Shown piece by piece: positions 1-52,944 of a DNA stretch of 64,000 bases (position 1 is the first letter of the stretch; each line of letters opens with the position of its first letter). The notes under the pieces were generated by a model that was not told the origin of the DNA, made no database searches, and saw only the letters and a list, made by a program, of their open reading frames with translations. The DNA comes from Podarcis gaigeae (lineage: Eukaryota): NCBI GenBank assembly GCA_964106915.2, contig OZ066917.1; one strand, 5' to 3'. The translations under genes and the position numbers were made by a program.

Positions 1-132
1 ATAGTTATGTGTAGCTGTTCAGACACAGCTTTTGCCTAGGAATAAAGGTAACCATTCTTACTTATGAAATGTTGGAGCAAAAATTATTTAAAGTATTTGG
101 TTCTTTCAATAATTCTAACTCTAACTCTGTGA

Positions 133-331
133 AAACAAAAAAAATTCCTTCCAGTAGCACCTTAAAGACCAACTAAGTTAGTTCTTGGTATGAGCTTTTG
201 TGTGCATGCACACTTCTTCAGATATGCACACAAAAGCTCATACCAAGAACTAACTTAGTTGGTCTTTAAGGTGCTACTGGAATGAATTTTTTTTGTTTTG
301 ACTATGGCAGACCAACACGGCTACCTATCTG
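133..331. mobile_element. Penelope-like element (PLE) terminal-repeat insertion, inverted configuration, copy 1
   Basis: 76-bp inverted arms 132-207/224-299 (one mismatch at 283) and tail ...GACTATGGCAGACCAACACGGCTACCTATCTG. Flanked by direct repeat TAACTCTAACTCTGTGA (116-132, 332-348). Near-identical to 3645-3858 and 50632-50744. The AGCACCTTAAAGACCAAC...GAGCTTT..CTTCTTCAG motif resembles reptile Penelope pseudo-LTRs (recognition). Confidence 0.8.
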
Positions 332-1599
332 TAACTCTAACTCTGTGAGTTTGACTTTTCATAGTGGTTGCTTCTCATGGTGGTTGCTAATGCTTCTATA
401 GATTGCTGTAAATAATTTAAAACAGAGCTGAAGCTGAGCTAAAATGATCTACGGTACTTTCATTTTGTTTTTATTGCTATTGTCTAAAAAGCACCTTTTC
501 CTATGTGTTTTCTTCAGGTTCATCAATCATATCCTCTATTTTTGTTCCCAAGCACTACTCTGGGAGAGCTGTGCCAAAGGGCTAACTGAAAGGATCTAGG
601 AAGCTGTGAAATCTCTGTTTGAGTCCACCATAACCAAACTGGGGAAATGATTTATTTTTGCGTAACTCTGTTTAATGAAAGATTCTACCTCGTAGATTTC
701 AGCACAAAAATAAAAATTGTCTGTGTGGCGTTTGTGTACATACACATCTATATCTATGATACAGCTGTAGTGGAACTGACTATACAAGTTTTTTCTACAA
801 CTGTGTAAGTACAGTTAGCAGTATGGTAGGATCTTGATTGCTTTCTTTTTCCAGATGTCTTTAGTATAGAACTTTATACTACACAAAATTGGTTAAGGAT
901 TCTGTAAGTTGGCTTGCTGATCTTGGAAACAGGGCAGGGGCATGGCCTATCTCTGTAGGTGAAGTCATAAAATCATAGCCTGAATTCAGACTACTTTCCA
1001 AACTATGGTTTGATTGATTGCGAAATTAATACTGTGATCTCAGTCACTCCATGTTCTGTTCCACTGAATTATTATGGGGTTGTTTTGAGGTTGCCCCAAT
1101 AGAGGTTTTTCTGCAGACCTCTGAGTCATCCTGAGTTGGACAATACCTCCCTCTTATTTTCACTACATAAGCAGAGGCACTTGGAAAGCTTTGTCAGTAT
1201 TAGAGCTAGAGCACTCTCAACCCTTACCAGTAATATTTGTGCCTTAAAAAGGAGAAAAGCACCTCTGTAGTTAGGCGGTACTTCATGTCATTCATGTTGC
1301 ATTGTGAAGTGCTTCCATTTAGAATTCCATCCACTCTGTTCCATTTACCATCCTTCTCCAGGTTTGATTCCCTTCCACAAAAGCCAGTCAACATTCTAAG
1401 CCCATTGAGTATGCTCAGTTCCATTTCTCCTGTTTTATTTTTGTTTTCTCCATTTTTGTTTTCGGCCATTTACATTTTGGGGGTTTGTGGGGAACAATGG
1501 CAGATGAATGTCAATCCCAGTGGCATTAAATTTCCACTGATGTTTACGCGTAGCTCTCTATTCCATTCCAGGAAACAAAAAAATAGCTTCTTAGAGTAA

Positions 1600-2130: not shown

Positions 2131-3644
2131 TTTCTTAACCTTTTCTTAATCATTTGGTATGAAAAAAATGAAGGAGTGTTTTTTACCCCAATCTACAAAT
2201 ATTGCCTTGGATAATAAACACACCCCAATAGCAAAAATCATTGCATTTCTGTGGCATTTTATACCAAAGACAGTTTTCTGTTTCTAGCAGGAAAATTTCA
2301 AGTGGCAACTGGCTGCAATTTGGAGACAGGTGACAATATGTGAAAATATCCTAGAAGGACAAGCTTAAAGGTCTGCTTAAGTGTACATTGCACAATGAGA
2401 AGTACAGTGCATGAAAGTTAATGAGGAGTTCACATTTCCAATGGACCTGCTGGCAGTGTATATGAAGTCACTTGAGTCACTTTCCTGATGTTTTGTATAT
2501 ACTTTTATGAGGTGATGATTAACTGTCAAGTTGGGAAAAAATAATATGACATATGGCTCCCTTGAGATATGAATGAATCTCCCATGTCAAGGACAGGCAT
2601 TTTGCCTTGCTGTAATGGAAAATGCAGAAGAAAGAAAAAACCAAGGAGGTGTAGGATTGGCCTTACGTAGTCAACCCTTCCTGTGAGTCCTTGCAGGAGC
2701 ACTCCTACCTTCAGGGGTGGCCCAGCTGGGGCTAAATGCCCTGATTAGGAGCCACAGGTGGTAGCCGTGGGGATATCCAGCCCCACCTGGTTGAGGCAGG
2801 CACAAATAGTGCAGAGCAATGTGGTCAGGGGGAAGAGGATGATGGACAAAAACTGCTTAGGCTTCCCATGGTTGGATTGGATGTTGTATGTGGGTGAAGG
2901 TCTGGTGGGGGTAATTGTTCCTTTGGGGTTAATTTCCCAGTGTAATAGGGTTCCCATTACTTTGCAAGAAGGTTTCCTGTTTGAGGGTTTTTTGTTGCTG
3001 TTTGAGGTGGTTTTCCTATTCTGTTCAAATAAAAATATCTTTTCCCTCATATATTGACTACCAAAGATCCTTTAAAAAAACCTGCAGAGTTAATTGGCAA
3101 AATACTTGCATCCCTCAAAAACTACTTTTGTTCCACTTTATTATATTCCATTATTAGTCTCAAATGACTGACATTGTATGGTACAAAAGGAGCAGGGGAT
3201 TCAGCCCTTCATTAGTCTCCTTTGTACCCAAGAACCTTATATTCCTGCATCTTGTTAATTACTACTGCTCAATGTACTTACAGCCTTCAAAACTGAATAA
3301 CCTTGAGTTGTAATGTTAGTAATACGTAAACCTTTCAACATAACGCTGACAACCTGGATTGAGTTCACTAACAGGGTCTACATTTTTGAAGCTGTTCATT
3401 TTGACCATCAGTAACTGCAGCAAATCAACTGTAATCCTCAACACAGTGTGCTAAGACCTTTTGGTGTGATTTATGGCCAAAATTCTTCTTTGGTGGCTAG
3501 AAAAATAATTAACTTTCAGATGTGTCAGAGCTTCCTAGAGCTGGTGAATAAAGTTCTTTTGTCCCCCTCCCTTTTCTAATTTAAGAGTCGAAAATAACTG
3601 TATTGCAAGGTATATTTTGACAGCTGAATGTCTGAATCTTAAGA

Positions 3645-3858
3645 TTTTTTTCCTTCCAGTAGCACCTTAAAGACCAACTAAGTTAGTTCTTGGTATGAGC
3701 TTTCGTGTGCATGCACACTTCTTCAGATACACTGAAGAAGTGTGCATGCACACGAAAGCTCATACCAAGAACTAACTTAGTTGGTCTTTAAGGTGCTACT
3801 GGAAGGAAAAATTTTTTTGTTTTGACTATGGCAGACCAACACGGCTACCTATCTGTAA
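3645..3858. mobile_element. Penelope-like terminal-repeat insertion, inverted configuration, copy 2
   Basis: Perfect 80-bp inverted arms 3647-3726/3732-3811 with loop ATACA. Same tail as copy 1. 13-bp TSD CTGAATCTTAAGA (3632-3644, 3859-3871). Confidence 0.85.
3693..3730 (-). ncRNA. Minimal type I hammerhead ribozyme motif (PLE-associated)
   Basis: Minus strand reads GUAU-CUGAAGA-A-GUGUG-CAUG-CACAC-GAAA-GC-UC/AUAC. This gives the conserved core CUGANGA...GAAA...UH, stem I GUAU/AUAC, stem II GUGUG/CACAC and a palindromic AGCU stem III. Confidence 0.7.
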
Positions 3859-4628
3859 CTGAATCTTAAGAGCTCATCATGACAGGCAATAGTTGATGAA
3901 TGGGATATTTCAGATCCTTAAGAAACAAGGAATATCACATAAGGAGGTATGATCTGAATGTGTCCATTAGCTAAGGCTGTTCCAGCCTAACAGCAATTAT
4001 AAATAGAAACAGAACTTATGCAATGAAGACTGGCTGTCATTGCATCTCATGCAACAAAGTAAATAACTCCCAAATCCATAGAAGCAGATGGGATGAATTT
4101 GCATCTTGAATCTCACCTTCCCCCAGCATCACCATAAGCTTGGAAATCGATTTTGCCTGAGTCATAAAAAGAACAATATCATTATCTCTGTACAAGTAAC
4201 ACAAGACTCTCTAGCATAAGCCGCTATGTGCAAAAATATTTTTTTTGTTCTTTTAACTAACAAGACATATAAGAATTGAGATTTTTATGGGATGATAAAA
4301 TCCCCAGTTAGGTTTTTTTTTTTTTACCAAAAAGAAAAACCTAAAGGTAGAATAGCAGATTCAAGCTGAATAACTAATGACCCAAACACATACCCCTGCC
4401 ATACAAAGATTGCAGAACTGAAGTATAGTATAGCTCTAATTGGTAGTTAGTAAGCTGCACAGAATAAAATTTTAAGAGTGCACAAAGTATTACTAGACCC
4501 TGAATGACATATGGCATCAAGCCAATGAATCTTGCTTGTTAGTGGAGGACTATTTCATCAATTTGAAAATCAACTCAAAATTCTGAGGTGAAGGATACTC
4601 ATTTAAGTTGGGAATGAGCTCTATAATA

Positions 4629-4870
4629 CAGTGGTACCTCGGGTTACATATGCTTCAGGTTACATACACTTCAGGTTACAGACTCCGCTAACCCAGAAAT
4701 AGTGCTTCAGGTTAAGAACTTTGCTTCAGGATGAGAACAGAAATCATGCTCTGGCGGTGCGGCAGCAGCAGGAGGCCCCATTAGCTAAAGTGGAGCTTCA
4801 GGTTAAGAACAGTTTCAGGTTAAGAACGGACCTCCGGAATGAATTAAGTACTTAACCTGAGGTACCACTG
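4629..4870 (+). mobile_element. Tc1/mariner (Tigger/pogo-like) MITE, copy 1
   Basis: TIRs CAGTGGTACCTCGGGTTA / TAACCTGAGGTACCACTG, TA TSDs (4627-4628, 4871-4872), four copies in the window. Confidence 0.9.
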
Positions 4871-6792
4871 TAGAGGCTTAGTTCCTTTCAAAATCCAGAA
4901 ACTATATTTTATCATTATCATTCTTATAAGAGATGCTGGAAAACAAGTAGCTCAGAATAAAAGCTTTGAGACAGTTAATGTATTCAGTATATGCACCAAC
5001 ATAACGCAAGCTCTGTTGCATCCACAAAGCAAGGTTTTCATTTTCATTTAACCACAGTTCAGCATTACCTCTAAAGCCTAAACTGTGAGTAATGCTATCT
5101 GTGGATTATTGAGACAAGCATCTTTGTAAACTACCCTCTGAAGCTGGTTTGTTTTGGGAAACCAAAGTTAAGACCAAACACAGTTTGCTCAAGTTCAGTC
5201 ATAATACTAAACTGAGTTTAGTTAAATGTGAAAGCAAACATTTCCTCTCTCCTCTTCATGTCTGCACTAGAAAATGGGGGGGGGGGGATTGACACACTCA
5301 GAGCTCCTTCACATAACAAGTGAAGTCACATTTATTGATTGTCCAAAACTGTAATCCTGCACACAAGCTTCTCAACCTGCCCAGCTATGTGCAATGTGAG
5401 TAAAGTGGGAAAACCTGTTAATACTCTTAATAATAGACGGGCTGTTGTCTAATAATTTTTGGAAAAAGAAAACCAGCATATACACACAGGTTCCACTTTC
5501 AAAACACAATGCATTCCTAGGAAATTGTTCATTAGATGAGCTGACGATTTCCATTGTCTCCTATGGAAACATTTCTAATCCATGATTTGTTCAATATCCC
5601 TCCCTCCCTGGTTTCTGCCTGAAACTGCTGTAGCCAACCAGTAAAACACAAACAAGGAAGTGGGCAAACTCTGGCTGTTCAGCTATCTGAATCAGTTGGA
5701 TAGCTGAAATATCAGATGAGTGTTCTGATAGTGGAAGCCGTGTGTAGAAGTGAGGAAGGAAACTGTTTCATGATATTGGGTTTTATCCAATGGTGTTTGT
5801 CTTAGCAGAAAATCCTTCTACTTGCATAAGTTGGAGCACATTCTTCTTCTTTTTTGCCAGTTCCCCCCATACCTGCTGCAACCTTCTGCACCACATGCCA
5901 TTGTGTTCTGGAGGGAATGAGAGCCCTAAATGGATTGGGGTTAGTAGGAAGGGGGGTTGAGATTCAGTAGAAATTGGGTAGCCCAACTCGTTTGTACGGA
6001 AGCATTTCCTGTTAAAGCAAATGCATACTTGAAAAAGACCCAACATTTATTTATTCTCTGCCCACAATATACAGTATTGATATTGTACAGTATTGATATT
6101 GTTAAATATGTGTCAAGTTTTAAATAGTATATATCCTTTCCATCAATTCAAAGAGATAAGATATAATTAGAACTCAAGTATGTAGTTTCTAAGAACAACA
6201 GACTAAAAATTTACTTACAAGCGTTAAAACACAGATAAGAAAGCAGCTATAAGCAAAAAGATTAGATGTACATTTGAAGGAAATCCCATATAATATTATT
6301 GATATGTCAATCAATTTTATAAATATCATATTAGAAACAAGGATGAAATGTTTGTTTAGAGAACCATTGCTGCTAATTGTCCTATGTGAGACATTCAAGC
6401 AGAAACAATGATGAAACCAAAACAATGCATGTAATATAAAAAGACAACATTTGGCACCAGTAAATTCAGTGTAAAACGTTTCCCACATCATCAGTCATGC
6501 AAAATTAAATCTCTGTAATTAATTTTTTTTCATAGAATATGCTTCAGTTACTAGCAGAATTGTTATCTGTCTTCTAAACCGTATTCATTTTAATCATATT
6601 TGCTTATCACTTTTATTTTAAGAATACTTTCCTGATAACTAAAGTGCCTGAAATTCAGATTTCAACACCTTTTCTCATTTATACTATCCCTGTCATTATA
6701 TAAGGTGCCAAATACTTTGAAATCATGGAGTCTACATTCTGTCACTTGCTTTATGAAATAAACCAAGATGCCAAACCCTCCCCTTGAAGGTA

Positions 6793-7034
6793 CAGTGGTA
6801 CGTCAGGTTACATACGCTTCAGGTTACATACGCTTCAGGTTACAGACTCCGCTAACCCAGAAATAGTGCTTCAGGTTAAGAACTTTGCTTCAGGATGAGA
6901 ACAGAAATCGTGGTCTGGCAGCGCAGTGGCAGCAGGAGGCCCCATTAGCTAAAGTGGTGCTTCAGGTTAAGAACAATTTCAGATTAAGTACGGACCTCCG
7001 GAACGAATTAAGTACTTAACCTGAGGTACCACTG
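6793..7034 (+). mobile_element. Tc1/mariner (Tigger/pogo-like) MITE, copy 2
   Basis: Same TIRs and body as 4629-4870; TA TSDs 6791-6792 and 7035-7036. Confidence 0.9.
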
Positions 7035-9213
7035 TACAGAAAATGATTCCAGAACAGATATTGAATGGTCCTGCAGGACATGCTCTGCTGCTCACTAGTC
7101 ACCAGGCCAATGTGAAAGCCTATAAGACAATGGCTAGGTACAGAGGCTCTTAAAATTTTGCACAGATGAGCTAGTGTTGCGTTAGCTTCTTTCCCTCCAA
7201 CCAGTGTTATTTCTAGATTTGGGGGGGGGGGCAGGGCAAGAGGAGCGCTTCAGCAAGATGTTCTGTGTGGGTCCACTTTCTGCCAATTGCCACCAAACCA
7301 ATGCTGATTTGCTTGCCCTATCGCTGTGGGCCAAATGCATACCAATGTCCAGAAGGCAAGGAAAGTGGAGGCTGCTGATTCTTCGTCTTGCTTTCATCAC
7401 TGTTTGCATGCTTGGCTTGGTCAAGTGAACAGGCAGCCAAAGCAAGGATGAGTACTGACAAGCAGCACATGGGATAAGCAATTAGCCCTCTGCTGGTATG
7501 TGGGCCGCAGCAGGTGCCGGAGAAAGTAAGGCCATAACCATGGTAAGGTCATGACCTGCCAGATCTCCCCCTGGCATGTTCCTGTCAAGTTTCTATCTTT
7601 ATCTGCCCTTTAACCAATGCTGTGGCCATCACTGTCATTTGACTGGACAGGTGGTGGGCCATCCACATCCAATATTGATGACGGCGTAATTTGAGTGTAT
7701 CCTTTGTTTTCCCATCAATGTGGTTTGGTAGTCCCTCAGGGTCCCTCCTTCCTTCTCCAGGACACATTGAAGTAAGCGGAAACGCAATGCAATCACACGA
7801 CTCTTTGAATTCTGGGGTCTGTATATTGCATTCAATATATTGTAGCCAGTATTTCCTGCCAACAGCTTCACTCCCTGAGCATTTGGAATGCTTGTGACCA
7901 CTGAACACGCCATCAAACCAGCTCAATCAATCTTCTGTCAAGAGGCTTTACTAAAAGCACTAAAACAGTTGGGGGAAAATGACTTGCAATTAAAAATTCC
8001 TGAAAAATGAATCATAACAGACATCTTTCTCTACCAATGTGGTTACATAATGGGGGTGCCACAGCAGATTAGGCCCTCTTTAATGCCAATGCATAATTAC
8101 TACACTGTGGCTTACCACTAGCCAGTTACACTGCTTAGCATTTGAGGAACATGCTAATTTTATAACCAATTATACATTGCCTAAAAACATTAGTTCAGAA
8201 GAACTCTCACAAGCAATGCATCACCACCAGGCTCTCTGTTTATTGTTCCACTGTATACATGGCAACAATTCCAAGAATACTTAGGTTTGATGATATTATA
8301 ACAACAACATCTTAATTTCTGATATGAATGAATTTATCCAAACAGCAAGGTACTTGTAGGCTACAAGTGCAATTTTCAAAAAAGAAGCCTAATGTGCATT
8401 TATCTGCAACCTTTTCTTTGGCAAAAAGTAAAAATAAGATTGCACGATCTCGCTTTAGCTAATATGGCGACTGGTATCTTGTGGCTGGCATCTTAATGAA
8501 GAGTGCTTCAGGCCCTTCGCTGGAATTCTTTAGCAGTCAATCTCTCTTCCCCTGAAGACTCAGCAAGGCATTTTGAGGGAGCTAGACTGGAAGATATTGC
8601 CACTATCCAGAGAGATACACTTTATCGTTGGAATAAGTGAGTGAGCAATCTGAAAGGTTACAGCTGCCACTCTGAAATTACTTTATGATAGGAAATCCCA
8701 CAAAGTCTGCCAAGCTACTTCTGAATAAGAGGTTTCAGGATTATAGCCTATTATGTTTTCCTGCTTACTCAAAAATGATTCTCTTCTCAGTTACTTCACT
8801 TCTGTGCCATATGTCAAGGTCAATAGAGTCATATAAACCCATGTCAAATTGTGAAACTAGGATCAATGGCCCTCATAATGGTAAAAGATCTCTAAGGATA
8901 TTATAGAGTAATACAGACAATAACCCCAAGCCAATAAATCTGATAGCTGTATACTATGATTTTGATCAAAATTAAGTTGGAGCTTTTTATTAGGATACTG
9001 GCAGTTTGAGGCAGGGAGGGAAAGTAAGAGGCAGAACCATCTATGGGTGAAACAATTCTTCTGACTTGACATTAATGCACTTCAAACTAAGCATAAAATG
9101 CACACACATGCACACAATAATCCAAATAAGACCTTCTATATTTTTGTTATAAAGTGGTACTGGGGACAAATGGCTTTGCCCCTTCACTACCAGAAAGGGA
9201 TCTTTTGAACCAG

Positions 9214-9488
9214 GTAGAGATGGGTAAAAAATTAAAACTTTACACTTTTCCAAATTTATGTGATGCAGTTCTCCAACCAAGCCATGTGCACAAAGATTCT
9301 GCATAAAATGCATATATTAGTTTAAAAATCATGCAAAAATGCATTATATGAGGTGAAATTGTTTTAAAAATGTGTATGTTATGGGAAATGTGCACTAAAA
9401 TCCTGCATTTCAAACTGATACAGAAATGTAGAGAACTGGATTTAAGATCAGGAATTGGAAATGAGAAATTGAAGTTTGTCTATCCTGC
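9214..9488. mobile_element. Degenerate non-autonomous DNA transposon (TAGGGATGGG-type ends, hAT-like)
   Basis: Starts TAGAGATGGG, has internal AAAATGCAT-like repeats and ends ...TTTGTCTATCCTG. The right end resembles 60630-60725 (...GATCTGCCCATCCCT). Confidence 0.45.
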
Positions 9489-9749
9489 ATTCATGGAAGC
9501 TCCCAGAAGTGGCTCAGCCTGTTTGCTGAGTAAACACTGGAAGGTGGAAAACAGCAGTCTCTGACAACTTGAGCTATTCCCACAACTGCTACCCAAACAC
9601 CCAGGGACATGGCAATAGTATCAGACCCTGGTGTGGATTGTCCCACCTTTGAATGAGAGAGCAAGAAGCTCAATTCCACTTCTTCCTCAAATAGGGATCC
9701 TGCCTGTCTCTCCAGCACCACACTACATTACAGTCAAACTACTGTAATG

Positions 9750-10200
9750 TGCAGCTTATCCTGCAACCTGGAACCAATGCCCAAGTCTGACAGATGGATG
9801 ACATTGGACCTGTGGAACACATCCCATTTGGCCATCTGGGGAAGGTGGTAAAGACAAACATCGCTTTGTAAATTATCTTTTCTGTTCAGTCCACTTGAGA
9901 TGGGTGGCTGCCCATCATGAAAGACACTGCAAAAGCTCCATGGTATAATGATATTGCTAATAGAATATATTACCACCTGAGGGCCAGATGCGATATTGGA
10001 TTAGGAAGGCCTCAGTTCCAAAGCCAGATGAGTTTATTAGCAGGCATAGATCAGGTGACACACAGAATAAAAAGGGTAGGCAATTAGTCTCCCAATAATT
10101 ATGCAACAAATTGATGAAGGGGGAGGCAAGGAGAAAAGAGTCAAAGGAGCTGACTATCGTGTCTCGAGACAATTAGGCCAGATACTTAGACAGCCATCTG
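9750..10200 (+). pseudogene. Highly decayed APE endonuclease domain of a non-LTR retrotransposon (RTE-X-like)
   Basis: Frame-shifted motifs in the expected order: ILQ-TW (~9758), PSGEGG (~9833), N-ILPP (~9966), R.SGDTQNKKGRQLV (~10043), ELTIVS....YLD (~10147-10195). Confidence 0.45.
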
Positions 10201-10561
10201 GCTGCATCTGGAAGTAAGACCTTGCAGCAACTATGCATTGTTAATAAAGTGGTTAAAGGGACTGTGGAAGTAGATTTTTCCTATACAAAAAAAAAATGTT
10301 TATTGCTGCAGAAGTAATCCAGAAAAAGGAATTAAAGATTTGCCTGGGTACCAAGTGGATATGCAATTTCTTCACTCTTGTGCTCCGTTCTATACTGTTT
10401 TGGCACCTCCTGCAGTGCGGCACCCAATACAGCCACACTGGCTGTGCTACCCTAAAATCACCCCTGTTGTAGTCCAATAACATCTGGAGGACAGCCTGAT
10501 CTACGCTAATCAGCATCATCCCCTTGAAATACCACAGACTGAACCTGGGACCTTATCAGTA

Positions 10562-10787
10562 CAGTGGTACCTCGGGTTAAGAACTTAATTAGTTCTGGAG
10601 GTCCGTTCTTAACCTGAAACTCTTCTTAACCTGAAGCTCCACTTTAGCTAATGGGGCATCCAGCTGCCACCATGCCACCGGCACGCAATTTCTGTTCTCA
10701 TCCTGAAGCAAAGTTCTTAACCCAAGGTACTATTTCTGGGTTAGCGGAGTCTGTAACCTGAAGCATCTGTAACCCGAGGAACCACTG
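10562..10787 (-). mobile_element. Tc1/mariner (Tigger/pogo-like) MITE, copy 3
   Basis: Reverse-orientation copy with TA TSDs 10560-10561 and 10788-10789. Apparently inserted into a decayed tRNA-derived SINE head (GACTGAACCTGGGACC before, CCACTGATCT after). Confidence 0.9.
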
Positions 10788-12744
10788 TACAACCCACTGA
10801 TCTGGACCAGGCTCTGGCTAGGACAAAATCAACACCCATGGCATAACCTTCTCTCAGCTTGAAATGAGTATGAAATAGCTTCCCGTTTCCCTTTCACTGA
10901 GGCACCTGCCAGGTGAGAATCTCCCTTTTGTGCTCAAACTTATCTAGGGAGAAATAGATGGGACAATAACGGGAACCAAATATAGTCTAAGGTCCGACAG
11001 CCAGATCTGGACTGTTCCAAAAGCTTTGTAGTTCAGTCCAATTATAATGACTTTAAGCATTGCTTATGACACACACCAAGACATTTCACAAAGTAACTTT
11101 CAATTACTATTTATCATGTTAAAGCACTGCATAAATTAAAAACAACTTAAAATATTAAGCAGGCAAATGCCTGCAATCAACTAGGCTATTTGCGTTTGCA
11201 TTAATACTCATCTGGTTAATTTTGATATGGGATGAAAAGCAGCACAAATCTATTTTGTGAAGGTATTACATCACCCTTTGTTTTGTCCATTAAATATTGC
11301 ACATATATAGAAGGTTATTATAAAATGCTGCTTCTTTCTTTGGCTCTTTACTTTTCATTTAACCTTTTTGTGCTTGCATTCTCGCCAAGTGCAGAAGTAG
11401 TGAATTACCTTATTAAGCTGCCTGCTTTTGAATAAAATTATTTTAAATTACATTTCTTTGCTTCAGAGACCTTTAGGGAAAAAAACCCTGTTAATATTAG
11501 CACATGAGGAACATTCTTTTCATATTGAATATACTGATATAAATTCATTTCTTCAGTGTTGTAAAAAGATTCAAGTTCTAGCCTCATTACTCCTGCCACT
11601 GACTGTGGTTGCCAAGTTGTTCTACATGTTGCCAGTTCTGGGCTTGTCCACACTTACTCTTGTCCCGCTGCTTTCCCCAAGGGAAAAACCTCTCTTTACT
11701 GCTGCACTGGAGCAAAGGTCAGTTGGATTTTCTGTGGATTGACGTTTGCTCTGATTCAGCGGTAAAGAGATGGTTCTCCCTGGGAAAGCAGCAGGGCAAA
11801 TGGAAAACCATTTGGACCAGTGCCTAGAAAGCATGTGTTAAATGCTAACTAAGCACCAATTCTCATGAAGACTATGGCTGATCTCCTCTGGCTGAATGAC
11901 AGAGTTTGCCTGATTTCAGAAAATAGAGATTTCAGAAAAATTTACCCCAAAATATTTTCTGGATCCTGCTGGTTTGTATTATTTAGTGCCAGAAAACAAT
12001 TCAGTTTTTAATATTAAAATAATATACCAGTTTGTAGCCAATCACAATTGCCCATCAAATAATGTTAATTTGCTTAATTTAGCAATAATCATAAGGGAAG
12101 CAAAATGGCAGTCGTGCATTCAATAATTCTGAATCCTAGGGTCAGACTTCTGAGCTGAACTGAAGCACAAATGTAAAGCAGCAGCTCTTTAGAAATAGGG
12201 CAGAAATCAAAGCCAAAACAGATGCAGTTTTTGTTTGTTATCAGAAAGGTACATACAGATACAGGAAGTGAAGAAAAGACAGTACCCTTGAAACAATAAA
12301 CTGAAAGGAAACTGCACTTAATAATGATGCATCATTCCATATGCACATTTATATCTCTGAAGGACATGCACATTACAAAAGTGAGAGGGAAGCAAAAAGT
12401 GCCTTGTTTCCAACACCTCAAAAGGTCAGAACATTTTTTCCCTATTACCTGTCTCTGTATATCTAAATTGGAGTGAGTTCTCCTTACACTGGCCTCATGC
12501 CAGGTGCATAGTAATTTAGAAATAGAGTATACTCTGTGCCCACACTCTTCACCATCTCCTTATGGCTTTCAGTGGGCCACTTAATCAACTGTAACAAGCT
12601 TCAATTCATTAGCGGCCAGCACAGTGAACAGTAGGTTTATGGTGTACATTTAGACGGATCCAGGCTCATTTCCCAGGTAGGTGATCCCAAAGCATGAAAC
12701 ATGATGGTAATATAATTATCTTAAAAGATTATTAAAGAAACCAA

Positions 12745-12955
12745 ATGTAGCTAAGAGCAAGAGCTGCAAGCCAGAAAGTCTCAAGCTGAAATCTTACTCC
12801 AGCCATGAGCACACCAGGCAAGTCATTCTCTCTCATCCTGAAGTCGCAATATGGGAACAATAATAGAGACTAACTTTTAATGGCTCTTCTAAGGATTACA
12901 GATAATTTTCATGAAGCACTTTGAACACCTAAAAAAATCACCATATAAATGTTCT
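12745..12955 (+). mobile_element. Ancient CORE/MIR-like SINE
   Basis: GGCAAGTCATTCTCTCTC...ATGGGAACAATAATA...GTAAGGATTA-like core and the GAAGCACTTTGAACAC...TATAAATG 3' end typical of MIR-type SINEs. Confidence 0.6.
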
Positions 12956-15900
12956 GTATTCTTAAGTCCAAACCTGTTTTTTAAAAATCTCATGCAATTT
13001 AAACCACATTTCTTGCATTAGTAACTTGCATTAGTACATGTTCCTGTTGGGGCCGCAACTGTTTTACGAGCTTATGCTCCCTTGCCTTTAGCAGCAGTTT
13101 AATTTATAAACTTTAACGGATAATACTGCTTTGCCTGACTTCTGTGCAGTGTTGAACATTTGGATGTGGGACAGGTGAAATGGGATAGTTAAATCTGTGA
13201 CTGCATATTTTAGCATGTATTTTTATTTTTTATTGAGGAGGGAGTCAATTTTTTGTACTGTTGTTAATCAGCGCAAATAGCAAACAATTGTTGGCATCCA
13301 TTTGTCTCAGGAAATAATGAAGGACTGCACATTTTGGGGGTGAGGGGTGGAGTTAAAGTCAAACCATTGGTGAGTGACAGCACCTGCTGTGGCTGTAGAG
13401 ACCAATACGGGAGACACATGCTTAGCAACATTAAAAGTTGATGCAGTGGTATGCTTGCATGGGCATTACTAGATCAAATCCTTACTTGGGAACAAAAACT
13501 AAAGAGTAAGTTAAGTCTGGACACGTTTGTGAGGCTTCAGTCACTTAATCAAGACCACTTTGGTCAATCACTCAATCCTAAAGAACAGCAGTAGCTCCCT
13601 TCAGTGACCAAACGAATCACTTCAATGACACATCTGCGCTCTTCGGCTCTGATAAAAGGAGACTTCACCTTGCTTCAAAAGCCAGGTCTGACACAATCTA
13701 AGATGGAAAAACTAACCTGACACCACCTGATCACTCCAAACTGCAAAGAACAGGCATAAGCAGTGACAGCACACAATCTATAGTACATGGCAGGTTTTTT
13801 TAGGTCATTGGATAGTTGCCCATTTAGAGAAGAAGAAAATGAAAATTAATAGCTCTGCTGGGTTTTCAAAAAATGAAATAAAGCCAAGAAATGATGTTTA
13901 CAATAGAAGATACTGCAGCACACAAGCATCTTTAACAGGTATTCTAAATGAAATGTATTTTCTCAGGCTTCCTAGACGAAAATTTGAAGATCACATTCTT
14001 TTCTCTTGAAATAAATCCATAATTACTGCCAGAACCTGGCTCTCTGTCACCAATTATTTTTTAGACAAGCAATAGTGCAATACTGATCCAGCTGTTGAAA
14101 CGTATAGAACTTAAATTAGCTGTTATGATTAATCTGTCCCAGTGATCTCAGTGGGATTTGTTTGCAACTTGCTTTAGCTAGACTGTGGCATTTGACCCCT
14201 AGTTTGCAAGTCTATTCTTTATCCCCACAGTCTCTTACTGTGTCCAGTGCAAATGACCAATCGGGCAATATATCAACATGTCAAGCAGACACCACTCATC
14301 AACCATCACATTTTGATCAGGCCTCTGCACAGAGTCTACAAACATACAAGTTGTATACATACAGGCTCTCTGCAATAAAAATTAGTAGGTAGGGCTCTTT
14401 TGTATATGGCTGGCTACTTTTAAAGCTCAGCTTACACTCATGGTTAGGACCACTGAAGTCCTGCAATTCATATTTTCTTCATTAAGCTTTTTAAAAAATA
14501 ATAATAATAATCCTCATCATCAAGCAGCCACCTTTATGGGAAATGGGTATTACGATGACACATGTTTCAAAACAGCTATCAAACCATTATGCCTCAAAAC
14601 TGACCAGCTATCGTTAGGCATTATCTGTTTTTAACAGATTGTATGTGCACTAAACCCTGAGCCTGCAATTAAATAGTCTACTTAATTTTCCACTTATAAT
14701 GAGGATGTGAAAGCTGACACAATGAACCCTACACCCACTAAAGCATTTTCTCTGTGCAGCAGCATTCCACCTGTGATCTTGAATGTGTAATTCCCTTAAT
14801 TAGGAGAATTTCATAAACAGATTTGAATTGCCTTTAATTTCATGCCTCCTTCCTTTCATAGGCTTGTGTGTGTCTATGCATGCACCATCATCAAAATAAG
14901 CCCAAGAGGAGGATAATTAATATTCTATTATTCTAATGGGGAAATAATGTAGAGAGACATTCATGCCCAAAGGAACCAAAGTGAACAGTTTTCTGAGTGG
15001 GGACATTTTCCCAAGTTCAACATATGCAAGAACAAACCCAATGAACTTATTATATTGACGTCCAGTTTAAGATTCAGAGTGAGAAACACTTGCTTTAGCA
15101 AATGTTCATGGTACTCATGGGGCACAAACCACCCCCTCAGCACACACAATTTGGCCAGTAGCATTAAGTAGGGTCTCAGGATATACGAAGATATGCAAGC
15201 CACAAAATGAGCTTATCACTTCCTGAAAAGGAAGCATTTCAAAATGGACTCAGCTAACCACCCTACATAGATGGATTGAGACAAGTCAAGAGAAACTTCA
15301 CATTTATTCTTCATTCTTTGCAAAGCAATCACTTGGTTCTGAATGTTTCAACTAATGCAGTAGAACTGTGGTTTAATTAATCAACATCATTTTTATAAGC
15401 TACAACTGGCCTTACACAGAAGCAAAGATATAAATTCTGACAGCCTGCCGTAAGACAAGCTTGAACACAGTATTAGCTCTCACTCCACATCTCTACCTAT
15501 TAACAGCCAAATGCTCTGCATAAAGGAGATGAAATGGCACTACATTAATTTACCACCTGCCAAATGTGTACCTAGAATGATTGTCTGAAGGGAGAGGAGG
15601 GAGAGTGGACAAATAAATAGTTCCAACCATTTTTGCTTCATGCTTAGCAGCCTCTACCAAGCTGCTACCTCAGGTAATTTGACATTTAAGGTTTCTATGA
15701 CCTAATGTTCCTAACCTAACTATACTTCACTGGGGCCTTAGTTCACACTGAAAATAAAGAATGTGAACTTGTCAAAGGGAAAAACCCCCACAGCTGTTTG
15801 AACACAAAAGAAACAAATTTTGCCTGTTGTGTTGCAGGACTGATCTTACCATTAGGAAGAGTGAGGCAAACACTTTAAGTGGCTTGTTTTGGGTGAAAGG

Positions 15901-16144
15901 GAAGAAAATGGTATTTATTATTATTATTATTATTATCTTCTAGTGAGAAGTAAGTGTTAGAAAATCAGAGGGGAAATGACAGTGTTCAACGGAGCTGTGC
16001 ATCTATGAAATTTACTTAAGATCTCAAGACCTGCACTTCTAAATATGAATGTCAATCGTCTTGCTTCATAGTAAACGGGCTTCCTTGATATGTGCAGAAA
16101 TTTTACTATCTCTACTGAGGGAGGAGGCTTAAGGATGTTTAAAT

Positions 16145-16280
16145 CAGGCATAGGCAAACTCTGCCCTCCAGATGTTTTGGGACTACAACTCCCATCATCC
16201 CTTACCACTGGTCCTGTTAGCTAGGGATGATGGGAGTTGTAGTCCCAAAACATCTGGAGGGCTAAGTTTGCCTATGCCTG
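16145..16280. mobile_element. hAT-family MITE (palindromic, 136 bp)
   Basis: TIR CAGGCATAGGCAAACT / AGTTTGCCTATGCCTG, long internal inverted repeat, perfect 8-bp TSD GTTTAAAT (16137-16144, 16281-16288). Confidence 0.92.
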
Positions 16281-16508
16281 GTTTAAATGATCATCTTATA
16301 ACTAGTTTATAAAGGGAGATTAGCACCACATCCACCAGCTCTCTCCCTAATGTTGCCTACCCTCTTGGTCCTGCATTTGGAGTAACATGTGAAAGAGGAG
16401 CCTATATTGTGAGAATCTGCCCTATGCTTTCCCAGTATTAAACCAATTACTAAGCCAAGGATATGTCCTCTTATCCCTTGGATTGCCACATGTCATGTAT
16501 TATTTAGT

Positions 16509-16591
16509 TGAGATTCCTGCATTGCAGGGGGTTGGACTAGATTACCCTCAGGGTCCCTTCCATCTCTACAATTATTCTATGATTCTATGAT
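16509..16591 (+). mobile_element. CR1 LINE 3' end
   Basis: GATTCCTGCATTGCAGGGGGTTGGACTAGAT...GGTCCCTTCC and an (ATTCTATG)n octamer tail. Confidence 0.85.
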
Positions 16592-17519
16592 CTACTCTGA
16601 GTAAAACCTATTTGAATACCACACATTAGGATGCTTCTTTACTGTAAATGAAGTGGGTACAGCAGGGTGGTGAGCTTGATTTGTACAAATTATTTTGTAT
16701 CCTTCCTTGATAACACCAAGAAAGATTTCAGACAAACAAACAGCAAGTGGAAATTCCCTGCTTAATTGTTTGATTAGCATGACAGTTTCTAAGGCAAGTC
16801 CGTATGTAAAGTGTATGTGAAGTCTCAAATTGAGCTGCAAAGAGGTACTCGAAACCTTGTATGAAAACTTTATTAATTTTACTTGGATGGAATATTCTGT
16901 CAGCCCTAACATTATTACAGTCCCTTCACTGATAATTAGTAGTTTAATGATTTATGATGCCTTGTCTGATATGACAGAGTCATAACTTGCTTTATACCAT
17001 CAAAGGCTGTATACATTCACTGTATTTACAATCCCATTTGATTAGATCTAAGCTTATTTCATAAAAAAGGTATATAACCACAAGTTTTAGATAAGGGGCG
17101 CTGGCTGAATGGTGACAGGTAACAATTTAAAGAAATCCTTTACTCTCTCCTTGAGATTGCAGTTTTCAGAACAAAGGGCATGAATTCAGCAATTTTGGTT
17201 TGAAAGCAATCATCAATCTTCCACAATTTCACAAAGATCCTGTCTAATGACTATATTAAATTGCTTCAAAGTTTATGAGACACCACCCAATAACATCAGG
17301 AATGATGACCCATTCTTTTTTTTGTTTTCTAAGTGAAAATGTTACTTCATTTTTTTGTCTTACAAGAAGATGCGCATTATGGGACAATAAGTGAACTTGC
17401 ACAATAACTAATCATTATTAAACAATTTTATTTGCAGAATATCAGATTAATATTCATAACAATGAATTCTATGTAAAAACCGAGCCTGTTTAGCTACACA
17501 GTATATATTTTATAGGCTC

Positions 17520-17965
17520 ATGTACCTGATGAATGCTCATTAGTTGCTGAACATTGAACTGGAGTAAAATGCTCCAGGGCTCTGTCCTTGGCCCTGTATT
17601 GCTCAACATTTTTATGTAAATTGGACGAGGAAGCAGAAGGGGTGCTTATCAAATTTGCCGATGGCACTTACTGGAAGAGGTAGCCCCCATCATTAAAGAA
17701 AGAAATTATCTGGACAGGCTAGGATGCCTGACCAAAACCAACAGGATGAAATTCAAAAAAGATAAATGCAAAGCACTGCATTTAGATTAATAAACAAATA
17801 ATCAAAAACACACATATATGACAGAAGAGCCCCGACTTGGCAGCAGTACATGGGGAATGTATACAGGCATCGCAGGATGAACATGAGCTAGGTGGGCAAT
17901 GCTGCTGCTAAAAAAGTCATGCAGAAATCATGGAAAGCAATTACTCTGTTCTATTCTGCCGCTTT
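17520..17965 (+). mobile_element. Old CR1 LINE, RT-domain fragment
   Basis: Decayed PQGSVLGPVLLNIF (~17574) and IKFAD(G)T (~17648) RT motifs, then MKF.KDKCKALHL. Confidence 0.8.
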
Positions 17966-18045
17966 TAGAGTATGGTGGGAGGAATTCAGCATAATAATAT
18001 GCAGATTGCTCCATCAGCACAAGAATTTCTGCTTACCTGTGGAAC

Positions 18046-18581
18046 ACAGAGTCACAGAATCTTAGAGTTGAAAGGGACCCAAGGGTCATCTAGTCCAACC
18101 CTCTGCAATGCAGGAATCTCTGCTAAAGCATCCATGACAGAAGACCATCCAACCTCTGTTTGGAAACCTCCAAGAAAGGAGAGCCCACCACCTCTTGTAG
18201 GAGTCTGTTCCACTGCCAAACAGCTCTGTCAGAAAGTTCTTTTTTCCCAATGTTTAGGTAGAATCTCCTTTCTTGCAACTTGAAGCCATTGGTTTGAGTC
18301 CTGCCCTCCAGAGCAGGAGAAAACAAGCATGCTCCCTCCTCCATGTGACACCCCTTAAGATAATTGAAGATGGCTATCACATCTCCTTCTCAGTCTCCTC
18401 TTTTCCAGGCTAAACATAACCAGCTCCTTCAAGCGCTCTTCATAAGGCCTAGTTTGCCCTCATCTGCATACATTCTAGCTTGTCAACATCCTTCTAATAT
18501 TGTGGTCCCCAGAATTGGACACAGTATTCCAAGTGGTACTATTACTTCCCTTGATTTGACACTATACTACTGTTGATGCAG
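18046..18581 (-). mobile_element. CR1 LINE 3' fragment
   Basis: ORF 18123-18380(-) MIAIFNYLKGCHMEEGACLFS...GRTQTNGFKLQERRF is the CR1 ORF2 C-terminus; CR1 3' UTR and tail near 18046-18120. Confidence 0.9.
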
Positions 18582-18827
18582 TATATTGTTAGGACACATC
18601 TTATTTTTGTGATAACCCACCCTGGGACCTTAGGGTGAAGGGTGGGTAATAAAACCACCACCACCACCTCTCCCCCCTGCCTGCTATTCTTTGGAATCTC
18701 CTAACAACCACCACACCCAAGCCAGTTTGAGGTGTGTGGAGGCAATGGGGAAAGTCCCATTGCACTAGCGGAACCCATTAGTTGAACCCAGTCCTATGCC
18801 TAGTTTGGGGAGAAATGAATTTTACAT

Positions 18828-19053
18828 GTCAAGAAGAGGGCAACCAAAATTATGAAAGGATCTCAAAACCAGTCCCTATGAGGGGCATCTGAAAAAGCCT
18901 TCAGGACACAAGTTTAAAGAGAGACATGATGGCGGTCTTCAAATATCTGAAGGGCTATCATGAGGAAGATAAAGCAGACCTGTTCCCTGTTATAACAGAG
19001 GGCAGGACAAGAACCAGTGCTGGGAAATTGCAAGGAAGCATACGCGCACGCGT

Positions 19054-21845: not shown

Positions 21846-22004
21846 GGGGGGGGGGGAGCAGAGAACAAAACCAAGGACAACAAAGTACACTTCTACATAG
21901 AAACCGTTTTTTGAGGCTTCATTAAAGCATGGAAATTTGCTCATTTTGTAATGTACTTGCTGCTACTGTAGCTGTTTAATATACATACTGGTAGAGACGA
22001 GCTA

Positions 22005-22229
22005 CAGGGGTACCTCGGGTTAAGTACGTAATTCGTTCCAGAGGTCTGTTCTTAACCTGAAGCACCACTTTAGCTAATGGGGCCTCCCGCTGCCACCGTG
22101 CCACCGGACCATGATTTCTGGTCTCATCCTGAAGCAAAGTACTTAACCAGAGGTAATATTTCTGGGTTAGCGGAGTCTGTAACCTGAAGCGTATGCAACC
22201 TGAAGCGTATGTAACCTGAGGTACCACTG
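22005..22229 (-). mobile_element. Tc1/mariner (Tigger/pogo-like) MITE, copy 4
   Basis: Same family as 4629-4870; TA TSDs 22003-22004 and 22230-22231. Confidence 0.9.
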
Positions 22230-23174
22230 TATATCGCTAATTCATTTTATGGGGCAGTTCTCATATTTTGCATGGAGGAGGGGGAAGTCACATGAAGAAA
22301 TGCCAGTGTAAAATGAACTGCACATGGAAAAACCAAAGCCATTGCTGGGATGATAACAGTACCTTTTGTGATCACTGAAATAAAAGAAATAGTTGCATGT
22401 TATCTCCATGCAGCATCCAGATCTCACTGAAATGGATGAAAGATGCACAGAATGAAAAAACAAAACAAAAAACACAAAGTGTGGGTGAAGCAGTCACTTT
22501 ACATATGTGAACTGGCTCACTTTTTATTTACATTCAAATCTAGCCACATCTGTTTTAAAAGACAGATACTAATAACAGTTATAAATGACTACCAACACAT
22601 TGCTGGTAATAATGCCTTCATATTTTATAACATATGGCTTTCTAAGCAAAAAGAGCTTGCTATAAAAGCACTTTGTTTTCCTGCCAGATATTATCAATGG
22701 CATTTGAGGATACGGGAGGTAGAGTGTTGGATGGAATCCCATAAATGTAGGGAAAGTGGTTGGTTTTACTTTATGAAGGACAGAGAGGTGAAAGTATATG
22801 CAACCTTAGATTAATAAGCAAAGGGAGGAAATTTGGTTGGATACAGGGTTGCCCTTGTGAGTGGAAGTCCTCTTTCCATTTGTGGAAGGATCCAGGATCC
22901 AGTAGAGACTACCTGCTGAAGGTGGGGAAGCTATTTTTGCACACATACACCAGTGCCACCCCTCACACTGTTCTGGAGGTCTGCCAACCTGCTGGAGCAT
23001 ATTTTTACAACAATACAAACACAACACCTAGGCTAATTGTTTGTAGAGAATATATAATAGAATAATGATATCATTCAAATTATAGGAATAAGCCAATCAA
23101 AGTTCATATGTACAATATAACAGAGTGGTAGCAAGGACCATCAAGCCATGTGTTCAAAACAGATGTCTAAGGAC

Positions 23175-24675: not shown

Positions 24676-25012
24676 CAGTGGTCCCCAAACTAAGGCCCGC
24701 AGGCTGGATAAGGCCCAAGGGAACTCGTTTATCTGGCCCATGGATACCCTCGCCGCCTGTTGCTGCCATCCGCTCTTACTGGTGCTGTGCTGCGCTGCTG
24801 CTCACTTTTGGGTCGGAGGAACACCGGAAATAGCTTGTGTGCATGTGCAAGAATTATTTCCGGGTCAAAAGAGGCCCGTGCACATGAACACAAGCTATTT
24901 CCGGTGCTCCTCCGACCCAGAAGTGCGCCGGAAATAGCATGTGCCCTCCGGCCCGCCGCGCAATCGGCGCTGGAGACACTGGCCCGAGGAGAGGTAAGTT
25001 TGCTGACCCCTG
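24676..25012. mobile_element. Non-autonomous hAT (Charlie-like) transposon
   Basis: Imperfect TIRs CAGTGGTCCCCAAACT / AGTTTGCTGACCCCTG, subterminal GGCCC repeats, perfect 8-bp TSD GGCTAAGA (24668-24675, 25013-25020). Confidence 0.9.
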
Positions 25013-49397: not shown

Positions 49398-50631
49398 GAT
49401 GACACCAGTAGCACAGCCAGGCCCTGCTGTCCATTGTCAACACAGTCTTACAAGCAAATAATAAGATAATAGGACTAAAATTTCAGCCTCTCAATTTCCA
49501 GCTCTCTATGTTGGTCTTATTTCAGCCACTTCTACTGTTGGGCAAAAATAATAGTTCCCAGTCAATGTGACAGCAATTAACACAAAGCTGTATTTTCAAT
49601 TCTGTATTTCAACTTCTCCATGAAGGAAGTATCAACAAAAGCAGTAGCCCAAGCTAGATTGATGATGATTAAATTATTTTCTCTTTGGACTGTTCATCAC
49701 ACCTAATTGACAACAATGAATAGAACAACAGCAACAATAAAAAAGATACAGTGCCTTTTACATTTTAAAACAAACATTTAATTTGCTTCCCAGGAAATTG
49801 CACTGTAGAAGCAAACAACTTGCCAGCATTGTGCATAATCTTTCATTCCCTATGATCTCTTATTAAAACTCAAGATGTCAAATGAACCAGAGCAACACCT
49901 GTACAGGAATCCTGAAATGGTTTCTCAGCAAAATAATAAGAAAATATGGTTTCACATAGAACACAACATTGTACTAATGAATGCACTATATAATGGATTA
50001 CAAATCATTCTTTGTGTGGTGGTATGAAGATCTCTGAACATCCCAGGTTGTTGTATTTTATATATACCAAAAAAGCCATACTTGCATTTTATATTACAAG
50101 CATGGGCTCATTAGCATTTAGAGACAGATTGCTCCTCACAATACCCAATCAGCTGTTAGAAACTTGGAGTAATAGGGACACTGAAATTTAAGAGTTAGCA
50201 CATCCCCTGCTTGCCATTTTTTCCCCAGGACATTAGATTAATTGCTCTCATCCACAGATGGGGATAATGCAACTGGGCTTATTGGTGGGAATGAGTAGCA
50301 ATTCCAAGGATTGCAGCATAATTAGCAGTGGTAGTAATGGCCATTTCAGATCTAAAGCTTTGGCATATGTCTTTTTGCCCAGTGATAGTTAACTGTACCC
50401 AAAGTAATTATTTGTGCACATCTGCAGAGCACATACTATTTCTTTGGGGTGGTGGTGTGTGAACTGAGTTGGTTATCTGGGTAAATGCTCTATTGTCCTA
50501 AATGAAAGAGAACAGATTTTGAACTCATTTTGAGCAAGGAAACTGATCAACAGTGCTCAACTAGACATAGAACTGGACACCTCAATTGGATTTGCACTCA
50601 AAATGGCAGCTAGCCTGACCGTATTTCATCA

Positions 50632-50744
50632 CAGATAGGTAGCCGCGTGTATCTGAAGAAGTGTGCATGCACACGAAAGCTCATACCAAGAACTAACTTA
50701 GTTGGTCTTTAAGGTGCTACTGGAAGGATTTTTTTTTGTTTTTA
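50632..50744. mobile_element. Penelope-like terminal-repeat insertion, copy 3
   Basis: One arm of the family preceded by an inverted piece of the tail (CAGATAGGTAGCCG); 12-bp TSD CGTATTTCATCA (50620-50631, 50745-50756). Confidence 0.85.
50649..50686 (+). ncRNA. Minimal type I hammerhead ribozyme motif (PLE-associated)
   Basis: GTATCTGAAGAAGTGTGCATGCACACGAAAGCTCATAC, identical to the minus-strand motif at 3693-3730. Predicted cleavage after C50682. Confidence 0.7.
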
Positions 50745-52944
50745 CGTATTTCATCAGTTTGCATCAGCTTCCTGGGCCAGGGACTATAAAGGAAAAGCTG
50801 CTACAAATGGCCAACCTGTCGCCTTCAAGGATGGCATAAGTGCTAGGGCGCCACTCCCTTAATTTGATGGTTGCTTTCTTATGGAGAAAATAAGTAGGAT
50901 TTTTTGGGAGCAATGCTTATAGGAATGAATGTAGAGCAGAAAGATGTAGAAGTTGTTCAATACCATGCAGAGTTGGCCCACTCTGTGTGTGAAACTAGGC
51001 AGTAGGACATGGGTGAGACTCTTAGGAGAAGCCCAGATGAAAAAGGCTCTCTTGCAGGTCCAGTCCAAGGCTGTGCCCTAGAAAGCCATCTCACACAACT
51101 AACTGGCTTCTTGGATAGTAGGTAAGATAAAGAGTGGTTGGCAAAGTAGCTTAGACATTGCAGGCCAATGAGGAGGAAGCCCCCACCCATCCCCATGCAA
51201 TGGAAACAAAGAGGGTAATTAGAGACCCAGGACGCTTATTTACAACCACAACTTTAGCCTGCAAATAAAGGATATAGTTATGCATACAACTTCCTCTCAT
51301 GTCAATAGGGCTAGGCATAATTAACTGTGTGCTGGATTGCAACCATGGCCTGTTGTTTTAACACAACAAAGGAGCACAATGACTTAAGAATGTACCAGTT
51401 TATGCATGTGCCATTCAGAAGTGTGAAAAGCAAATGTGAAAAGCAAGCCATTGCATTTAAGTGGCTTAGCTGGCAAAACAGTTTTTGCTGTTTGCAACCT
51501 TTACTGAGATACTTTGGGGAATTCCAGTGTACTTGACAAAATGTAGTTTTAAGGTATTCTTTTTTGAAAAACAACACATCCATTTCCCAACAGATGTGTC
51601 AGTGTAGCAAAGCTACACTATTTCTAGAGAGGGTGGAGAATAACTATGGCACCGGAAGGCAAACAGATTACATTTTGTAAGATCCACACTCCTATCTTTA
51701 ACTGCTTTTCAGTCGCAAATCTCTCTTAGTTTTTTGCAGTGCTTTGATTATCATATTCCTACAACATTATCCACTATGCAACGCATCTATTCTTCTTATG
51801 CCTCTTGACTAACTAAAACAAACTGCACTGAGGAAAAATTCCCACACTGCTGGGACATAAACAGCATCTATGTGGGAGAGTATATGTTCGTATCATTTCC
51901 TAATAACGCATTTCATTCCCAAATGAAATTTGATCCTGCCCTAATCATGTCAAAAACATTTCCCCCCTTAGCTGTCACTTTACTGTTCTCTTACCCAGCC
52001 CTTCCCTGTCTGATTCCTTCAATTTCTCTACATGAAATTTCTTAATTACATGAAAAAGCAATCCAGGCTGAGCTTTTTTTATTTTTAAATCCTATTCTGC
52101 CAATTAATGGCACAGGTCTGGTCAAGTCATTGTAAGGTTATCACCATCTTAAAACAGATTTCCTAAAATTTTCTTTGCTTTCCAATCTCTTCTTATGGCC
52201 GGACTACAGGGCGAAATTGCAGGTTTAACTTTACATAACCCACCAGAGGGAGCTCTGCCAATTGACATGAGGTAGTCATCTCTGCAGTGTTGAAGGTTCT
52301 ATGCTCTGGAAGCACTTAACTGGGCTGTCAGTCAGAACAATGTGTCAGAGTGTTTGTGGATGAGCACCTGTCCATTTATCATGACTGAAATGAATCAACA
52401 CATTGTTTTTTGTGCTCCAGCCTAGATTTGTGGGAGGATATTTTACAGTGCAATGGGGCTAATTCTCAGGAATGTCAGTATTTTGCGGGAGCGATTCAAA
52501 CACACGCCAGAGCTTTCAGTTTGAATGCTGAATAAACAGGTTGTCAGGCGGAGCCCTGAGCTCTTTAAAATAATTCTATTTATGGTCTAGAGGCACAAGT
52601 AAGTGAAAGGAAAAAAATGGAACGCAAGCCCAAAGACCAGGATAAGCAGATAGTAAATTTTGTATTCTTTCCAGGAACAAGTCTGTCCCTGGCAAAAGGT
52701 TACTGCTTCCAAATGTTTTAAATAATAGAAAGCAAGAGTAGCAGGCAGGTCACTTACAAAAAAATATTTGTCTGAAGTGTTTTCATAAAACAAGATATGT
52801 TACTTCTGTAGTGTAATAATGCACTTGAACACTTCTGCACTGAATCTGCATTTTCCTCACTCAGGCCACATCTAATAAAATACAGCAAGCAAATACTGAA
52901 GCTAAGCTTCCTGCAAAATTCTCATGTTTCTTTAAAGACATCAG

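Follow-up and report, generated by a model that had tools for sequence, protein, structure and literature searches.

Penelope-like elements (PLEs) typically carry an inverted copy and a tail of 30-40 bp (PMC8557442; PMC3846280), and the formation of their tandem and inverted ends has been described as still undefined (PMC8557442). The PLE protein of Anolis nicks and extends both strands and is predicted to dimerise; it begins reverse transcription, without homology to the target, at two internal sites with the tail between them, and hammerhead mutants insert equally well in vitro, ribozyme cleavage being dispensable (PMC11167929). Minimal type I hammerheads are widespread in metazoan PLEs as single motifs, with close pairs on opposite strands and cases in reptiles also described (PMC4209133). 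In L1 elements, capped full-length inserts are marked by an extra G, and twin-primed inserts by duplications of 12-18 bp and by overlaps of typically 1-10 bp (PMC11702581).

The stretch of DNA analysed here (the window, 64 kb) contains three insertions of one element, at 133-331 (copy 1, 199 bp), 3645-3858 (copy 2, 214 bp) and 50632-50744 (copy 3, 113 bp), and no further copies. As an earlier note on this DNA had claimed, each is flanked by its own exact target-site duplication (17, 13 and 12 bp; Table 1), while chance matches at 1000 random places were no longer than 9 bp. The AT content of the three duplications is 65-69%, compared with 60% in the window as a whole, and the first 5 nt of the right duplication of copy 1 are also the continuation of the element present in copy 2. 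Near-identity of the copies held as well, a 57-nt core being the same in all five long arms save for one base in copy 1.

Public sequencing runs provided empty sites for two of the three insertions. One contig of run X7 (organism E) joins position 115 straight to 332 with a single 17-mer, and copy 3 is absent in runs X9 and X12 (organisms F and G), where the skip of 125 nt equals 113 + 12. Contigs at the flank of copy 1 in runs X1, X4 and X5 (organisms A-C) extend 23-26 nt inside it, an overlap that lies under the 31-letter bridging rule and is consistent with presence. The same three runs are consistent with presence of copy 2, for which no empty site was found among the four runs compared (X1, X4, X5 and X7, the last without cover there). 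The target duplications and empty sites led us to reject an assembly artefact, and the three inserts are confirmed as real insertion events. The family is highly abundant: 6,441-19,041 contigs per run matched the element, and its summed depth was 3e4-1.3e5 times the flank depth, a figure that is not a copy number.

Table 1. Positions of the arms, target-site duplications and complete hammerhead motifs of the three copies in the window
Feature	Position	Strand	Length	Remarks
Copy 1 left target-site duplication	116..132		17 bp	empty site in run X7
Copy 1 inverted arm	133..224	-		T-tract back to +2
Copy 1 forward arm	224..331	+		+19 (helix II palindrome centre) to tail end; tail about 299-331
Copy 1 right target-site duplication	332..348		17 bp	
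Copy 2 left target-site duplication	3632..3644		13 bp	
Copy 2 inverted arm	3645..3732	-		A-run back to -2
Copy 2 complete minimal hammerhead (predicted)	3693..3730	-		in inverted arm
Copy 2 forward arm	3732..3858	+		+5 to tail end; tail about 3823-3858
Copy 2 right target-site duplication	3859..3871		13 bp	
Copy 3 target-site duplication	50620..50631		12 bp	empty site in runs X9, X12
Copy 3 forward arm	50632..50645	-	14 nt	tail only
Copy 3 inverted arm	50646..50744	+		-2 to T-tract; one extra base before
Copy 3 complete minimal hammerhead (predicted)	50649-50686	+		50649 = +1; predicted cleavage between 50682 and 50683
Copy 3 second target-site duplication	50745..50756		12 bp	

We numbered the element from +1 at 50649, which is equivalent to 3730 in copy 2. 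In element orientation all three copies have the same order of duplication, inverted arm, forward arm and duplication; copy 3 has minus-strand orientation, with the hammerhead in its inverted arm. The inverted arms begin in an A/T tract (about +80 to +96) and end at a fixed edge, namely +2, -2 and -2 in copies 1, 2 and 3 (copy 2 reaches -6 if a 5-nt overlap at 3732-3736 is counted), and the random chance of three ends falling within 4 nt is 0.002-0.01. The starts of the forward arms vary, lying at +19, +5 and about +115. All forward arms extend to the tail end, their last positions differing by no more than 3 nt, and the tail is present at one end only, measuring 33 nt in copy 1 and 36-47 nt in copy 2, with its last 14 nt in copy 3.

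Each arm holds sequence that is absent from the other, neither being a subset; the arms overlap by ~80 nt in copies 1 and 2 and not at all in copy 3. Both arms of copy 1 carry a private change of the hammerhead core residue G12 to A (199 and 232) and differ at 283. This common change fits two cDNAs made from one template source, and later arm-to-arm conversion could also account for it. The A-run is longer in both arms of copy 2 than in copies 1 and 3; as its length varies within the family, this observation counts for less. Target and element match by 1-5 nt at the tail junctions, and the 5-nt overlap at the inner junction of copy 2 (3732-3736) is with upstream sequence of the parent.

A descriptor of the minimal type I hammerhead matched twice in the whole window and in none of 40 shuffles. 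The motif has the core boxes, a 4-bp helix I, a long helix II, an extra base after position 9, G10.1-C11.1 and a palindromic helix III, all of which it shares with the minimal hammerheads of metazoan PLEs (PMC4209133); this putative ribozyme differs from them in its helix II, which forms a perfect palindrome of 14 nt (predicted duplex energy -25.2 kcal/mol). The earlier note had placed a hammerhead in the shared unit, and the type I minimal motif is indeed there, but it is complete in only two of the five long arms: the forward arm of copy 2 is without the 5' strand of helix I, and both arms of copy 1 have lost G12. Nor did the covariance models add support, as no hammerhead family was among the 23 Rfam matches at E<=1; below-threshold matches of copies 1 and 2 to microRNA hairpins were rejected as generic hairpin scores. 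Helices I and II are predicted in a 52-nt fold whose energy is no better than that of shuffles (z -0.48). For copy 2, folding predictions enclose the motif in a hairpin of 80 bp, so that forcing helices I and II would cost about 58 kcal/mol, against 3.4 kcal/mol in copy 3, and these models make ribozyme activity of the hairpin copies unlikely. Across the family, one of 38 ribozyme positions is variable (C17 to U, an allowed change) compared with five of 58 downstream, a difference that is not significant (p=0.23). At 50688-50724, organisms F and G have a diverged subfamily with five common variant positions and share other sequence after 50724.

Since no parent RT/GIY-YIG ORF is linked to the inserts, we assigned them by their anatomy, which makes a PLE origin of all three very probable. 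Pattern scans run on contigs of viral, metagenomic and prokaryotic origin gave 0 matches, and no fragment of a PLE protein turned up, the 7 scanned of the 65 listed window ORFs and 2 further stretches giving 0 Pfam families. As in endonuclease-bearing (EN+) PLEs, an inverted, 5'-truncated copy lies at the 5' end of three of three window copies, and the 30-40 bp tail at one end only and the short target-site duplications (17, 13 and 12 bp) recur here too. Pen2a of Adineta resembles the inserts in having a head-to-head inverted arm without the tail, a one-end tail and a short duplication (PMC3846280; PMC8557442 Fig. 2), a small overlap between the arms, and a pair of TATA and initiator-like motifs with a spacing of about 20 bp (PMC3846280). 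Unlike Pen2a, the inserts contain no internal ORF and total 113-214 bp, their duplications measure 12-17 bp as opposed to 8-10 bp in Adineta (PMC3846280), and their inverted arm stops at one fixed place. The Poseidon element of Anolis carolinensis (PAc) shares the hammerhead near the 5' region of the RNA and, as a mechanistic model, the two internal starts of reverse transcription bounding the tail, with both strands extended (PMC11167929). The ORF of PAc starts in helix II, whereas the same ATG frame here closes after 9 codons. The second ATG of the element sits in the tail, and in copy 2 it may be a candidate for the start codon of the parent.

Two further systems are partly similar. L1 twin priming yields an inverted 5' part, a 12-18 bp duplication, short overlaps and an extra G at capped ends, and copy 3 fits it directly (PMC11702581); fixed internal priming sites and the ~80-nt duplicated stretch of copies 1 and 2 set the present inserts apart. 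Non-LTR retrozymes (PMC7229834; 10.64898/2026.07.22.740005) are likewise short, non-coding, hammerhead-bearing and PLE-related, yet they are head-to-tail tandems that make circles, whereas the three copies are single head-to-head inserts. An identity as retrozymes, which have at least two tandem units with a complete hammerhead, was rejected with 0 of 3 window copies qualifying. A SINE identity was rejected in view of the three lengths, the differing internal junctions and a unique tail in place of an A-rich or simple-repeat end; no Pol III head family (tRNA, 5S or 7SL derived) was among the 23 Rfam matches. The tail at one end only and a duplication length varying from 12 to 17 bp led us to reject a MITE identity.

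The abundance of the family allowed its boundaries to be mapped from loose contig ends in six runs. Listed were 24 of 1784 loose-end rows for four runs and 12 of 228 for runs X9 and X12, in tables biased to contigs long enough to align. Boundaries cluster in three places: +1, the T-tract (+88/+94) and the tail end. Position +1 (3730) with unique flanks is supported by 48, 48, 40 and 50 contigs in the four runs (among the 24 of 1784 rows listed), on a level with the 3' ends, and by 47 and 67 contigs in X9 and X12 (among the 12 of 228), making it a top boundary in six of six runs among the rows listed. T-tract ends are among the top places in all four runs, and the tail end is listed for three of them. 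Contigs that continue instead into a common upstream parent sequence number 47, 47, 42 and 41 in the four runs, and 41-88 per run overall, again among the rows listed. In X9 and X12 the listed 5' places also include -2 (47 and 88 contigs, partly parent) and -1 (23 and 20 contigs), and the upstream letters of contigs ending at -1 have an agreement of 0.37-0.41.

Just outside +1, the consensus is G (sense) in all six runs, at a position that is T in the parent, and joints at +1 end in an extra G in seven of seven listed rows (five of the 12 rows for X9 and X12 and two of the 12 four-run rows; nominal p 1.6e-4, for rows that are not independent and may share ancestry). Further upstream, the parent consensus reads TATATAAG at -31 to -24 in three of four runs, the fourth differing at -31; this TATA-box match lies 31 nt upstream of +1, although the loose ends on that side have a median length of only 20 nt. 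The interval from -31 to -24 is the canonical position of a TATA box relative to the transcription start. The boundary peak, the extra G and the spacing of the TATA match together lead us to read +1 as probably the capped start of transcription, falling at the beginning of helix I, a reading drawn from sequence data. Against this reading, the extra G at +1 is found in none of the three window copies, two of which run 2 nt beyond into parent sequence while one stops at +2, and a templated G in a master copy would yield the same signal. The promoter of Drosophila Penelope, TATA-less and internal (PMC2377424), counts against a TATA-driven start. The upstream TATA match is missing from all three window copies, and within the window the parent upstream motif occurs at chance level only (one match at 3 mismatches, a level reached by 35 of 100 shuffles). 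The parent consensus upstream of 50647 also holds a pyrimidine tract followed by CAG, ending at -2, which is 3'-splice-site-like; a second motif of this kind lies at 3812-3834, inside the tail of copy 2.

We propose that the inserts arise by double priming at insertion, which we judge to be distinctly likely. A TATA-driven RNA would begin at +1, where helix I also starts, and the PLE protein would nick the target with a stagger of 12-17 bp. One nicked 3' end would then prime at the tail end and give the forward arm, while the other would prime at the T-tract and copy up to the RNA 5' end, giving the inverted arm, whose cDNA would often gain a base opposite the cap. The two cDNAs would finally be joined with an overlap of 0-5 nt, each insert being built anew, and the source RNA could be supplied by autonomous copies or by any terminal repeat that bears a promoter. 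The inserts are likely to be copies of the first ~130 letters of an abundant PLE RNA, and it seems probable that they are dead-end PLE products of two-strand priming at internal sites near the capped RNA start. As the inserts are without the TATA match, such stubs are probably not templates themselves.

Copy 3 fits twin priming from a single RNA; in copies 1 and 2 one stretch would have to have been copied twice, from one RNA or from two like RNAs. Counter to the double-priming model, the ~80-nt overlap between the arms of copies 1 and 2 is far above the overlaps of L1 twin priming, and the junctions here show matches of 1-5 nt, whereas the Anolis protein started reverse transcription without target homology. 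A more speculative extension, which we think rather unlikely, would make the hammerhead at the first base of the capped RNA a pairing module: two leaders would dimerise through the helix II palindrome and helix III and so bring a pair of templates to the two nicks, where the PLE protein would sit as a dimer. Template jumps that leave the cap and land on the inner priming site of another RNA would create G-joined head-to-tail units (retrozymes at birth), and any PLE mRNA would yield stubs by default. Were this true, it would explain why full-length copies need tandem read-through.

The earlier note had left the choice between extremely truncated PLE insertions and a non-autonomous retrozyme- or SINE-like family. 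Short PLE insertions fit better, because lengths and junctions differ, none of the copies is tandem and none has the upstream TATA match; they are, however, not randomly truncated, since the inverted arm of these stubs spans two fixed places. A dedicated family with its own short masters, which would use a PLE protein in trans and carry a templated G, is an unlikely alternative, although several observations are in its favour. The family is very abundant, no ORF accompanies it in the window, and PLE terminal repeats have been put forward as the origin of retrozymes (10.64898/2026.07.22.740005). In five listed joint rows, a T-tract end and +1 are linked by a single G (3730 to 144/146; 50728, 50734 and 50741 to 50649). 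On their geometry, the kind of joint not being printed in the rows, these G-joined joints are likely to be head-to-tail units of about 80-95 nt with one hammerhead each, that is, retrozyme-like dimers. Against a dedicated family stand the variation in length and junction among the three copies, the fact that 0 of 3 are tandem and all are without the upstream TATA match, and the prevalence of longer forms, with the 41-88 contigs per run, among the rows listed, that reach the upstream parent.

Ordinary variable 5' truncation is the textbook account of such copies (PMC8557442), and the clustering at helix I could then come from an upstream 3' splice site or from an end-joining bias. The pyrimidine tract and CAG that close the upstream consensus at -2 agree with a splice site, as do the contigs that stop at -1 in X9 and X12 (23 and 20, among the rows listed) and, in D. 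virilis, an intron whose end coincides with the 5' edge of helix I (PMC4209133). The peak lies at +1 rather than -1, however, the ends at -1 have no upstream exon letters in common, and neither the excess of G nor the TATA spacing is explained, so that we hold this account to be quite improbable.

The suggestion in the earlier note that the ribozyme, by cleavage or by its fold, sets the template switch started from the two hairpin junctions, both of which lie in or beside the motif. It is mostly unsupported by the family data and appears very improbable: cleavage is predicted at +34/+35, while the fixed edge coincides with the start of helix I, lying 34 nt 5' of the scissile bond and at the likely transcription start. 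Position +35 is not among the listed loose-end places in any of the six runs, and, provided that the listing is ordered by support, its contigs number no more than about 43 in X9 and X12, against 114 at +1. One joint, the sole opposite-strand joint among five rows listed, has an arm starting exactly at +35 (3 contigs in two runs; X9 1, X12 2), so that the ribozyme may have a minor role; the other listed joints near +35 scatter from +29 to +41. Reverse transcriptase would, moreover, be expected to run into the folded RNA from the 3' direction, at about +38 and not at +1, and hammerhead mutations left insertion in vitro unchanged (PMC11167929). Self-priming or fold-back copying, possibly of an antisense template (Arkhipova et al. 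2013, PMC3846280), would account for the near-perfect hairpins, for the private change common to both arms of copy 1 and for the start of its forward arm at the centre of the 14-nt palindrome, but is the least probable of all, as each arm has sequence that the other lacks and the arms of copy 3 do not overlap.

The inverted copy, the tail, the duplication, minimal hammerheads in reptiles and the ribozyme class are already in print. Within the open literature searched, we found no paper linking the edges of PLE stubs to the cap. The inserts are a PLE by-product ordinary in kind that offers one useful mechanistic clue. Should the fixed edge prove to be where the capped RNA begins, thousands of stubs would record in the genome the start of transcription, the start sites of reverse transcription and the chemistry of the junctions, and many 'truncated' PLE copies would have to be recast as complete copies of an RNA leader. 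The double-priming model is open to testing in the existing in vitro system of Anolis.

Several other repeats are present in the window. A 403-aa fragment at 31352-32563 (+) is related to L1 ORF2 (E 1.5e-24 to 8sxt_A). An open frame at 41423-42070, presumably resembling a piece of a LINE endonuclease and without a match in a Pfam search, surrounds a perfect 47-nt direct repeat that ends in CA repeats (41593-41639 and 41890-41936) and whose copies flank 250 nt within the frame. The 166-aa frame at 42513-43013 (+), also without a Pfam match, we take to resemble the end of an RTE/BovB protein. A repeat of ~230-250 nt occurs in four copies (4627-4875, 6791-7039, 10553-10777 and 22002-22232), three of them with an inner 16-nt tandem, and is presumably a MITE of the pogo/Tigger type; a hairpin repeat at 16138-16287 and 55064-55163, with below-threshold scores to mir-5408, is probably also a MITE. 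Copies of a ~340-nt repeat that we assume to be Sauria-SINE-like lie at 30779-31115, 49142-49316 and 56786-57112. Finally, a 50-nt inverted repeat, 92% complementary and with its arms 29 nt apart, is found at 24800-24928.
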